Positions 10,878 to 36,411 of a stretch of DNA of 64,000 nt are shown in pieces; the stretch's first letter is position 1; every line of letters starts with the position of its first letter. The position numbers and the translations under genes were made by a program. Location of the stretch: NCBI RefSeq assembly GCF_055900595.2, contig NZ_CM148325.1, one strand, 5' to 3'. The notes below the pieces were generated by a model. The model ran no database searches, had not been told where the DNA came from, and worked only from the letters and a program-made list of their open reading frames with translations.

Positions 10878-12563
10878 GTGAATATAAACGTCGCCGAATT
10901 GTTAAATGGGAATTACATTCTGTTATTATTTGTGGTCCTCGCGCTTGGGCTATGTCTCGGGAAATTACGACTTGGTTCGATCCAACTGGGTAATTCCATT
11001 GGCGTTTTAGTCGTATCGCTGTTATTAGGCCAACAACATTTCAGCATTAACACCGACGCGCTTAATCTTGGCTTTATGCTGTTTATTTTCTGCGTCGGGG
11101 TCGAAGCCGGACCGAACTTTTTTTCCATTTTTTTTCGCGATGGGAAAAATTACCTAATGTTAGCACTGGTGATGGTTGGCAGTGCGCTGGTGATCGCCTT
11201 AGGGTTAGGTAAGCTGTTTGGCTGGGATATTGGCCTGACGGCCGGTATGTTAGCAGGCTCTATGACGTCGACACCGGTTCTGGTCGGTGCTGGCGATACA
11301 CTGCGTCATTCCGGCATGGAAAGCAGGCAGCTCTCACTGGCACTGGATAATCTGAGCCTCGGATATGCCTTAACCTATTTAATCGGTCTGGTGAGTTTGA
11401 TTGTTGGTGCGCGTTACTTGCCGAAATTGCAGCATCAGGACTTACAGACCAGCGCCCAGCAAATCGCCCGCGAACGTGGCCTGGACACTGATGCCAACCG
11501 TAAAGTTTATTTACCGGTGATCCGCGCCTACCGCGTCGGCCCGGAGCTGGTGGCCTGGACCGACGGCAAAAATCTGCGTGAGCTGGGCATTTATCGACAA
11601 ACCGGCTGCTACATTGAACGTATTCGACGTAACGGGATTCTGGCAAATCCAGACGGTGATGCCGTGCTACAAATGGGCGATGAAATAGCGTTGGTAGGCT
11701 ACCCCGACGCCCACGCTCGACTCGATCCCAGTTTCCGTAATGGCAAAGAAGTTTTCGATCGTGACCTTCTCGACATGCGTATCGTTACCGAAGAAGTGGT
11801 CGTTAAAAACCATAACGCTGTAGGCAAACGTCTCGCACAACTGAAGTTGACCGATCACGGTTGCTTCCTTAACCGCGTTATTCGTAGCCAGATTGAGATG
11901 CCGATAGATGACAACGTCGTGCTTAACAAAGGTGACGTTTTACAAGTCAGCGGCGATGCCCGCCGCGTAAAAACCATCGCCGATCGCATCGGCTTTATCT
12001 CGATTCACAGCCAGGTCACTGACTTGCTGGCATTCTGCGCCTTCTTTGTTATTGGGCTGATGATCGGGATGATCACATTCCAGTTCAGCACATTCAGTTT
12101 CGGCATGGGGAACGCTGCCGGGTTGTTATTCGCCGGAATTATGCTGGGCTTTATGCGTGCTAACCACCCGACCTTCGGTTACATTCCGCAGGGTGCATTA
12201 AGCATGGTGAAAGAGTTCGGCTTGATGGTGTTTATGGCAGGCGTTGGTCTGAGCGCCGGTAGCGGTATTAATAACGGTCTGGGCGCGATTGGCGGTCAGA
12301 TGTTGATTGCCGGATTGATTGTCAGTCTGGTGCCAGTGGTTATCTGCTTCCTGTTCGGTGCTTATGTATTGCGAATGAACCGCGCACTGTTGTTCGGCGC
12401 AATGATGGGTGCGCGTACCTGTGCACCGGCAATGGAGATCATCAGCGATACAGCCCGCAGTAACATCCCGGCGCTGGGCTATGCGGGCACCTACGCAATC
12501 GCCAACGTTCTGCTAACGCTGGCTGGGACAATCATCGTCATGGTATGGCCAGGGTTAGGATAA
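10878..12563 (+). CDS. ybjL: putative transporter YbjL (AAE family, TrkA-C domains)
   Basis: 561 aa, GTG start at 10878, multi-TM with central soluble domains. Confidence 0.9.
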
Positions 12564-12605
12564 AACTGAAGTTGCCCTGAAAATGAAATTTTTTTGCACA
12601 ACCGC

Positions 12606-12634
12606 AGAACTTTTCCTCAGGGCATCAGTCTTAA
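12606..12634 (+). promoter_or_regulatory. sigmaE-type promoter of rybB
   Basis: GAACTT at 12607..12612, 16-nt spacer, TCTTA at 12629..12633, about 6 nt before the sRNA 5' end. Confidence 0.6.
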
Positions 12635-12639
12635 TTAGT

Positions 12640-12718
12640 GCCACTGCTTTTCTTTGATGTCCCCATTTTGTGGAGCCCATCAACCCCGCCATTTCGGTTC
12701 AAGGTTGGTGGGTTTTTT
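12640..12718 (+). ncRNA. rybB: RybB small RNA (sigmaE-dependent, Hfq-binding, OMP mRNA repressor)
   Basis: GCCACTGCTTTTCTTTGATGTCCCC... ending in hairpin CCCATCAACC/GGTTGGTGGG plus TTTTTT; matches remembered RybB sequence and its ybjL-rcdA intergenic location. Confidence 0.85.
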
Positions 12719-12737
12719 GTTATCTAAAATTTATCTA

Positions 12738-13274
12738 CTACCCGGCAACCCTCTCAACCATCCTCAAAATCTCCTCGCGCGATAGCGGCTTACGGTCGGT
12801 GACAAAATGCAGCGTCATCCCCTCAATAAACGCATCAAGCGCGCGGGCGGTTCCGGGTTCAAACCATTGTTCGAGCGTTTGCTGACTGCGCTGCATCCAG
12901 TTTTGCATTACCGTTTTTAATAGCGGTTTTCGGCTAGCCAGCGCGTAGAGCTGGTACATCAGCTCCATGTTATCCGGCGTTGCAACCTGTGAGCTGTAGA
13001 TCATATCGGTGATAGCCTGGCATGCGCCCGGAGCATCACTAACATCGCTAAAAAATGCCTGATATTGCCGGGACATGATCTCAGTAAAACTGCTGAACGC
13101 CTCCAGCAACAACTCATCAATTCCTGAAAAATAGTAGGTCATCGACCCCAACGGTACCCCGGCAAGGGTAGCAATTTTGCGGTGCGTAACGGCATGTATT
13201 CCGTAAAGTTTCACCGCCTCCAGCGTGGCCTGGATAATTTTTTCTCGCCGTTGCGGATCGTTAGCGCGACGCAT
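12738..13274 (-). CDS. rcdA: TetR-family transcriptional regulator RcdA (YbjK)
   Basis: 178 aa from ATG at 13274; N-terminal TetR HTH. Confidence 0.9.
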
Positions 13275-13357: not shown

Positions 13358-14566
13358 ATGACCGTAAATTCTTCACGTAATGCATTGAAACGCCGAACCT
13401 GGGCGCTGTTTATGTTCTTCTTTTTGCCGGGCCTGTTAATGGCGTCCTGGGCAACTCGTACACCTGCTATCCGCGATATTCTTTCTGTTTCGATCGCTGA
13501 AATGGGCGGAGTCCTCTTTGGTCTGTCGATCGGTTCAATGAGCGGTATTCTCTGCTCGGCGTGGTTAGTGAAACGCTTTGGGACGCGGAATGTCATCCAG
13601 GTCACGATGTCCTGCGCATTGATCGGGATGATGATATTAAGTCTGGCACTCTGGCTGACATCGCCCCTGCTCTTTGCCGTTGGTCTCGGCGTCTTTGGGG
13701 CAAGTTTTGGTTCTGCGGAAGTGGCGATAAACGTTGAAGGTGCTGCCGTTGAGCGAGAAATGAATAAGACGGTTTTGCCGATGATGCACGGTTTTTATAG
13801 CCTGGGCACGCTGGCAGGCGCTGGTGTCGGGATGGCACTGACGGCCTTTGGCGTTCCGGCAACGGTGCACATTTTATTGGCGGCGCTGGTAGGCATCGCG
13901 CCTATTTATATCGCCATTCAGGCAATCCCTGACGGTACGGGCAAAAATGCTGCCGATGGCACCCAGCATGGTGAAAAAGGCGTACCTTTTTATCGGGATA
14001 TCCAGTTGCTGCTGATTGGTGTTGTGGTACTGGCGATGGCCTTTGCCGAAGGTTCTGCCAACGACTGGTTACCCTTATTAATGGTTGACGGTCACGGTTT
14101 TAGCCCTACTTCCGGCTCGCTGATTTATGCCGGTTTTACCCTGGGGATGACTGTTGGACGCTTTACCGGCGGTTGGTTCATCGACCGTTATAGTCGCGTT
14201 GCCGTGGTTCGGGCCAGTGCACTGATGGGAGCGTTGGGTATTGGGCTGATTATTTTTGTCGATAGCGCCTGGGTCGCTGGGGTGTCTGTTGTACTTTGGG
14301 GACTGGGGGCCTCGCTGGGCTTCCCGCTGACCATTTCTGCCGCCAGCGATACCGGCCCCGATGCACCGACCCGCGTCAGCGTAGTGGCGACGACCGGTTA
14401 TCTGGCTTTCCTCGTCGGGCCGCCGCTGCTGGGCTATCTCGGCGAACATTATGGATTACGTAGTGCAATGCTGGTTGTACTGGCGCTGGTTATTCTTGCG
14501 GCTATTGTCGCGAAAGCCGTCGCCAAACCCAATACCAAAACGCAGACGGCGATGGAGAATAGTTGA
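13358..14566 (+). CDS. ybjJ: MFS transporter YbjJ
   Basis: 402 aa, 12-TM-like hydrophobic profile. Confidence 0.9.
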
Positions 14567-36318: not shown

Positions 36319-36331
36319 TTGCCAGCCCCAG

Positions 36332-36411
36332 GCCTGATAAGTCGCGGCAAGCGTCGCATCAGGCATTTGCTCCAGACGCCAGATGCGGCGTGAACGCCTT
36401 ATCTGGCCTAC
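36332..36411. repeat. REP element cluster
   Basis: GCCTGATAAGTCGCGGCAAGCGTCGCATCAGGC and GCCAGATGCGGCGTGAACGCCTTATCTGGCCTAC. Confidence 0.8.

Follow-up and report, generated by a model that had tools for sequence, protein, structure and literature searches.

The interval between ybjL and rcdA raises two questions: does it encode an intact copy of the σE-dependent small RNA RybB and, if it does, is the G-U wobble drawn in its terminator stem a departure from the E. coli K-12 allele that matters? A sequence-only reading of the window, by which we mean the whole stretch of 64,000 nucleotides that was analysed (from contig NZ_CM148325.1), had recognised the sRNA and its promoter by eye and had left the comparison with K-12 open. 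Based on sequence comparison and folding, positions 12640-12718 of the plus strand are almost certainly E. coli rybB, preceded by a predicted σE promoter and carrying a substitution, A69G, that is common in the species and predicted to be structurally near-neutral.

Identity and setting of the rybB locus

Rfam yielded a single RybB match in the 64-kb window, to RF00110 at window positions 12643-12721 and on the plus strand only, covering model positions 1-79 of 79 with a score of 104.1 bits (E 2.3e-21) relative to a curated gathering score of 40 bits. The MG1655 ncRNA gene rybB (b4417; NC_000913.3 887979-888057, flanked by rcdA and ybjL) aligns at 12640-12718 with one mismatch, so that 78 of the 79 RNA positions are identical and both ends coincide. 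The identity and the plus-strand orientation assigned by the sequence-only reading were thereby borne out, the family match being confined to that strand, and the feature is a 79-nt small regulatory RNA at 12640-12718 (+).

The neighbours named by that reading are also correct. Upstream and co-directional lies ybjL (10878-12563, +), encoding an aspartate:alanine antiporter; downstream and convergent lies rcdA (ybjK; 12738-13274, −), encoding a TetR-family regulator, and beyond it ybjJ (13358-14566, +). These assignments combine open reading frames with RefSeq annotation, in which ybjL and rcdA flank the identical locus of NZ_CP098223.1; by the annotations of MG1655 and NZ_CP098223.1, the RNA occupies the orthologous ybjL-rcdA position of the RybB family. 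Of 5,426 complete E. coli genomes, 5,422 contain the 221 bp surrounding rybB, flanked by annotated ybjL and rcdA genes, and 5,418 contain the rybB sequence itself. The copy described here is intact and stands at its normal locus; it is an already known, ordinary feature, whose function in the present strain would follow by homology.

Across all 221 nt, the region matches E. coli Z0117EC0005 (NZ_CP098223.1) at 100% identity; from artJ to ybiI the window is collinear with this genome, with 99.96% identity in the first 46 kb and 98.9-99.5% beyond. The drop in identity past 46 kb suggests a recombination boundary. NZ_CP098223.1 contains two IS200/IS605 tnpA insertions at approximately 46000 and 49800 (flanking opgE-mntS-mntR-ybiR, the latter between ompX and opgE), and the window has neither of them.

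Several side observations concern annotation. Among the matches listed, rybB was unannotated in all of the non-K-12 E. coli genomes from RefSeq/PGAP, while the curated MG1655 record does carry it. Matches of rybB to records labelled as plasmids were mostly of megabase size, and represent mislabelled chromosomes or chromosome fragments; a few such records of 36-74 kb hold a ybjL-rybB fragment. Two further Rfam matches in the window, naRNA4 at 36331-36408 (−; 74.3 bits, Rfam gathering level) between fsa and moeB and ES036 at 925-967 (−; 38.8 bits, barely over the Rfam threshold) between rlmC and artJ, probably represent intergenic elements of a REP or terminator-like type.

A conserved, predicted σE promoter

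The promoter had been described as GAACTT-N16-TCTTA, and these elements were found at 12607-12612 and 12629-12633 with a spacer of 16 nt, the RNA start at 12640 falling 6 nt past the −10 element. A search of both strands found this exact pattern a single time in the 64 kb, compared with 0.01 occurrences expected from shuffled sequences. The published σE motifs are GGAACTTTT for the −35 element and GTCAAA for the −10 element (PMC1804206). The −35 element here, GAACTT (12607-12612, +; in extended form AGAACTTTT, 12606-12614), is conserved in orthologues and has one mismatch to the published sequence, and the −10 element is more fully given as GTCTTA (12628-12633, +), which is likewise conserved in orthologues. 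The arrangement as a whole, aGAACTTTT and GTCttA at a spacing of approximately 16 nt and correctly placed before +1, is that of a σE promoter.

Conservation was assessed in 112 distinct Enterobacterales upstream sequences anchored at +1, among the matches listed. In this set, positions −33 to −27 (GAACTTT) and the residues G−12, T−11, C−10 and A−7 were invariant or nearly so, and the −35 and −10 cores kept a fixed distance from +1 with a spacer of variable sequence. The assignment of the promoter to the σE type is supported both by the match to the published motifs and by these nearly invariant cores. An A/T-rich block, AATTTTTTT (−53 to −45; 12587-12595, +), was conserved in the same sequences at 0.66-1.39 bits per position, and is likely an UP-like element, a role suggested by its A/T conservation. 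The rybB promoter is reported to be conserved and strictly σE-dependent (PMC1804206), σE dependence being described for E. coli and Salmonella rybB (PMC1804206, PMC12249550), and it is one of the strongest σE promoters (PMC12249550); by extension from this literature, the present rybB would depend on σE as well.

Within the spacer, position −23 (12617, +) is T in the window and G in MG1655. Exact matches to the promoter haplotype with −23T came from just 11 of 5,307 E. coli records, which makes it rare in the species. Position −23 is the least conserved of the promoter (0.09 bits), with T in 35 and G in 14 of the 112 sequences, among the matches listed, and T is also present in E. albertii, E. 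whittamii and Kluyvera genomosp. 3. Given the lack of conservation at this spacer position, −23T is probably neutral; because the allele is rare in E. coli, it may have a small effect on promoter strength. An NsrR operator overlapping this SNP was considered and rejected, since no robust binding of NsrR to the rybB promoter is found (PMC12249550).

Seed and terminator stem

The transcript begins with GCCACUGCUUUUCUUUG, and window positions 12640-12656 are identical to K-12. This segment includes the seed CACTGCTTTT (12642-12651, +), which represents the CRCUGCUUUU motif described for σE-dependent sRNAs (PMC6694218) and lies at the 5′ end of the RNA. Orthologues were collected by an exact pattern spanning RybB nt 3-27, one genome per species, which returned at least 120 loci from Escherichia, Salmonella, Klebsiella, Enterobacter, Kluyvera, Serratia, Yersinia, Xenorhabdus, Providencia, Sodalis and others. 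Nucleotides 1-27 were invariant in the 54 distinct orthologue RNAs among the matches listed, although invariance across nt 3-27 is built in by the search pattern and only nt 1-2 are independent of it.

The terminator stem had been drawn from the arms CCCATCAACC and GGTTGGTGGG with one wobble, and this proved accurate: the arms lie at 12676-12685 and 12703-12712, followed by T6 at 12713-12718, and the wobble joins U12680 to G12708. In the minimum free energy (MFE) structure, and by covariation, the 5′ arm extends over RybB nt 35-46 (12674-12685, +) and the 3′ arm over nt 64-75, running into the T6 tract (12703-12718, +), which gives a terminator with a 12-bp stem and U6. The hairpin was missed by a simple terminator scan, whose loop limit of 8 is below the 17 nt of this loop.

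The structure is supported by the 54 distinct RNAs among the matches listed, in which the terminator helix was 97.1% paired and 6 of its 12 pairs underwent compensatory double changes. The covariation score was 0.377 as opposed to 0.192 for shuffles, none of 500 of which reached 0.377, and sliding the register of the stem caused pairing to collapse. At the pair that forms the wobble here (nt 41 and 69), these matches contained A-U in 23 cases, U-A in 22, U·G in 2 (the window and a Serratia group) and G·U in 1; wobbles also occurred at several stem positions in other genera. A function of the terminator loop was considered and rejected: such functions are reported for ArrS, RseX and SdsR, the loop of RybB is not implicated, and A69G lies in the stem.

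The A69G allele

Whether the wobble differs from K-12, which the sequence-only reading had left open, is settled by the alignment. MG1655 has A at the equivalent of 12708 (+) and the window has G, so that U41-A69 becomes U41·G69; the K-12 stem is perfect (CCCAUCAACC/GGUUGAUGGG, with MG1655 reading GGTTGATGGG). This is one of five differences between the window and MG1655 within 12540-12760. The others are at 12555, a synonymous GGG/GGA change in ybjL; at 12617, the spacer SNP; and at 12731 and 12745, both downstream of rybB and the latter inside the 3′ end of rcdA. When alleles were counted with 86-nt queries, a length at which a single mismatch takes a match under the 99% identity band, G69 was present in approximately 684 of 5,420 complete E. 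coli records (~12.6%) and the K-12 allele in approximately 4,417, the carriers of G69 including O157:H7, O145:H28 and O103:H2 genomes. Folding returned the same MFE structure for both alleles at −24.6 kcal/mol for G and −25.2 kcal/mol for A, a cost of 0.6 kcal/mol, with a probability of the 41/69 pair of 0.998 for G69 and 0.999 for A69. From energy, conservation and population frequency, we infer that A69G is a minority polymorphism, albeit a common one, and close to neutral for the structure. The idea that U·G is an intermediate on the way to C-G was rejected, as C41-G69 occurs in no E. coli record.

That A69G is instead consequential, weakening the terminator or the Hfq-binding module and so altering how much RybB accumulates, or permitting read-through that is antisense to rcdA, with a retuned envelope-stress response in G69 lineages as the result, seems to us very unlikely. 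The change does sit in the hairpin that serves as both terminator and Hfq scaffold (PMC6694218), none of the 116 other species-level sequences sampled among the matches listed has G69 in a CCCATCAACC-type stem, and a compensated C-G pair is absent from E. coli genomes. However, the penalty is small relative to a total of about −21 kcal/mol and leaves structure and pairing probability essentially intact, the allele is carried by ~12.6% of complete E. coli genomes, from unrelated pathotypes, and natural wobbles are found at a number of stem positions in other genera, among them U·G at this very pair in Serratia.

A related proposal concerns an 8-bp inverted repeat, TGCCCTGA/TCAGGGCA, in which 12573-12580 is complementary to 12617-12624 and which encloses the UP-like block together with the −35 box. 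The T at −23 lengthens this repeat by one pair relative to K-12, from 7 to 8, and the −70 to −9 segment, folded as RNA, has an energy of −19.8 kcal/mol (z −3.8), compared with −18.8 kcal/mol in K-12. Because no separate ybjL terminator was detected by the simple terminator scan with its loop limit of 8, the repeat may be a ybjL 3′-end hairpin. Similar but non-homologous repeats are present in Serratia, Kluyvera and Pseudescherichia, and complementarity between spacer and upstream sequence was weakly enriched over 43 divergent clusters (mean z −0.68, p ~0.004, with 7 of 43 at p ≤ 0.05). This weak enrichment led us to reject a family-wide promoter-bracketing hairpin in favour of a lineage-specific one. 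There is only a slim chance that the repeat forms a functional hairpin in ybjL read-through RNA, as a 3′ end or an insulator, and that −23T and A69G together could subtly retune RybB output in this lineage.

The rybB 3′ end as a prophage attachment site

The A69G polymorphism lies at the edge of a known phage target. In many genomes the 221-bp query is split just past the T-run, and rybB is the integration site of Fels-2-like phages (Felsduovirus), listed as hotspot #29 in 109 E. coli genomes (PMC10121019); Kpn38RybB likewise marks rybB as an integration site (PMC4048246). Strain M00057 provides an example, with a P2-family prophage that extends from ogr to integrase inserted between rybB and rcdA and with GTGGGTTTTTTGTTGCCT at both junctions. 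In lysogens such as NZ_CP061339.1, a prophage of ~34 kb is found at this position and brings its own replacement for the rybB 3′ end. The sequence repeated at both lysogen junctions corresponds in the window to 12708-12734, comprising the last 11 nt of rybB and 16 nt downstream, which is an unoccupied attB core for Fels-2-like (P2-family) prophages. The deposited phages closest to the reconstructed attP are Klebsiella P2-like phages.

Since the phage-side junction reads AGATAA-GTGGGTTTTTTGTTGCCT and the first base of the core is the G of nt 69, and since the SNPs at 12708, 12731 and 12745 cluster near the core, G69 might be the scar of a Fels-2-like prophage that integrated and was excised, leaving behind a G from the edge of the rybB-mimicking core of its attP. 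The rybB of the sampled lysogens, however, carries A in 6 cases and G in 2, which indicates that nt 69 lies beyond the exchanged segment and is contributed by the host arm; in addition, the window sequence past the T-run is of the K-12 type (GTTATCTAAAA) and not of the phage type (GTTGCCTGAAA). With both alleles found among the sampled lysogens, this origin of G69 was rejected as very improbable. Paired 90-nt junction queries returned 598 and 1,088 full-length matches, numbers that are not comparable because the 28-nt seed of megablast interacts with the mismatch; in these queries, no record joined A69 to that exact phage flank.

The 19 nt that separate rybB from the stop codon of rcdA (12719-12745) are unusually polymorphic in E. 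coli, with ATCTAAAAT, ATCTAAAAC, GCCTGAAAT and GCCTATAAT variants, and correspond to the 3′ half of the att core used by the prophages. Their polymorphism may stem from past recombination with phage att sequences.

Strand-specific constraint on the stem

The pattern of wobbles also bears on the strand of the product. The G·U pair of the window, read on the minus strand, becomes a C·A mismatch, at a cost of 4.7 kcal/mol as compared with 0.6 kcal/mol on the plus strand. That wobbles are tolerated, both in the window and in other genera, is expected if the plus-strand RNA is the selected molecule, and the pattern in the stem fits selection on that RNA. The locus does contain short open reading frames on both strands (12555-12692, −, 45 aa; 12654-12785, +, 43 aa) and a weak σ70-like site on the minus strand (12757-12728, 9 of 12 matches), from which one might propose an antisense transcript or a small protein as the product. 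We consider this extremely improbable: that site is at the level of chance (1 found, 0.5 expected), the Rfam match is confined to the plus strand, both the conserved promoter and the U-tract lie on that same strand, and the G·U pairs of this and other genera would become C·A mismatches in a minus-strand RNA. A sequencing or assembly error at 12708, for which the single-base difference from the reference strain could be taken as a sign, can be dismissed with near certainty, as approximately 684 independent complete records contain the same 86-nt allele and NZ_CP098223.1 matches the entire 221-nt region.

Predicted role and relationship to known systems

What the sequence establishes for this locus is the identity of the gene, its strand and its boundaries, along with the conservation of its promoter, the intactness of its seed and a terminator structure supported by covariation. 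By analogy with work in E. coli and Salmonella, misfolded outer-membrane proteins would release σE, and RNA polymerase containing σE would initiate at 12640 from the GAACTT-N16-GTCTTA promoter, with transcription ending at the hairpin and U-tract at 12718. The 79-nt RNA would then be expected to bind Hfq via its 3′ hairpin and U tail and to pair through its extreme 5′ seed, CACUGCUUUU, with the ompC, ompW and ompA mRNAs; faster decay of these outer-membrane protein mRNAs would ease envelope stress. RybB also feeds back on σE activity (PMC1804206, PMC6694218). Hfq binding and target repression are predicted here from the same literature (PMC1804206, PMC6694218), both the seed and the 3′ module being intact.

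Relative to MG1655, the window shares the locus, the 79-nt length, both ends, the −35 and −10 elements, the seed and all RNA positions but one, and differs by A69G, −23T and the flanking SNPs at 12555, 12731 and 12745. RybB of Salmonella enterica subsp. arizonae and diarizonae is identical to the K-12 RNA, so that the window differs from it at nt 69 only. Salmonella enterica rybB has the same σE promoter architecture and conserved arrangement of flanking genes (PMC1804206), but its −10 element is GTCATA instead of GTCTTA, and its spacer and upstream sequence also differ. MicA and MicL of E. coli and MicV and VrrA of Vibrio resemble RybB in their σE promoters, Hfq dependence and repression of mRNAs for outer-membrane proteins or lipoproteins, and MicV and VrrA have the CRCUGCUUUU seed in common with it (PMC6694218). 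These sRNAs nevertheless represent other genes, loci and overall sequences, and the element in the window matches the RybB model only. As an attB, rybB follows the tRNA/tmRNA type, in which the 3′ end of an RNA gene forms the core and the gene stays intact after integration by virtue of a phage-borne 3′ end (PMC10121019; PMC4048246), although the target is an Hfq-dependent sRNA and the site in the window is empty.

Because RybB is among the best-characterised enterobacterial sRNAs, the significance of the present copy is modest. Recognition of rybB from raw sequence has some annotation value, given its omission from the RefSeq/PGAP annotation of the non-K-12 genomes listed, and the wobble in its terminator stem proves to be a genuine difference from K-12, common in E. 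coli, and not an error. The contrast between G·U on one strand and C·A on the other provides a clean, small example of a strand-specific structural constraint.
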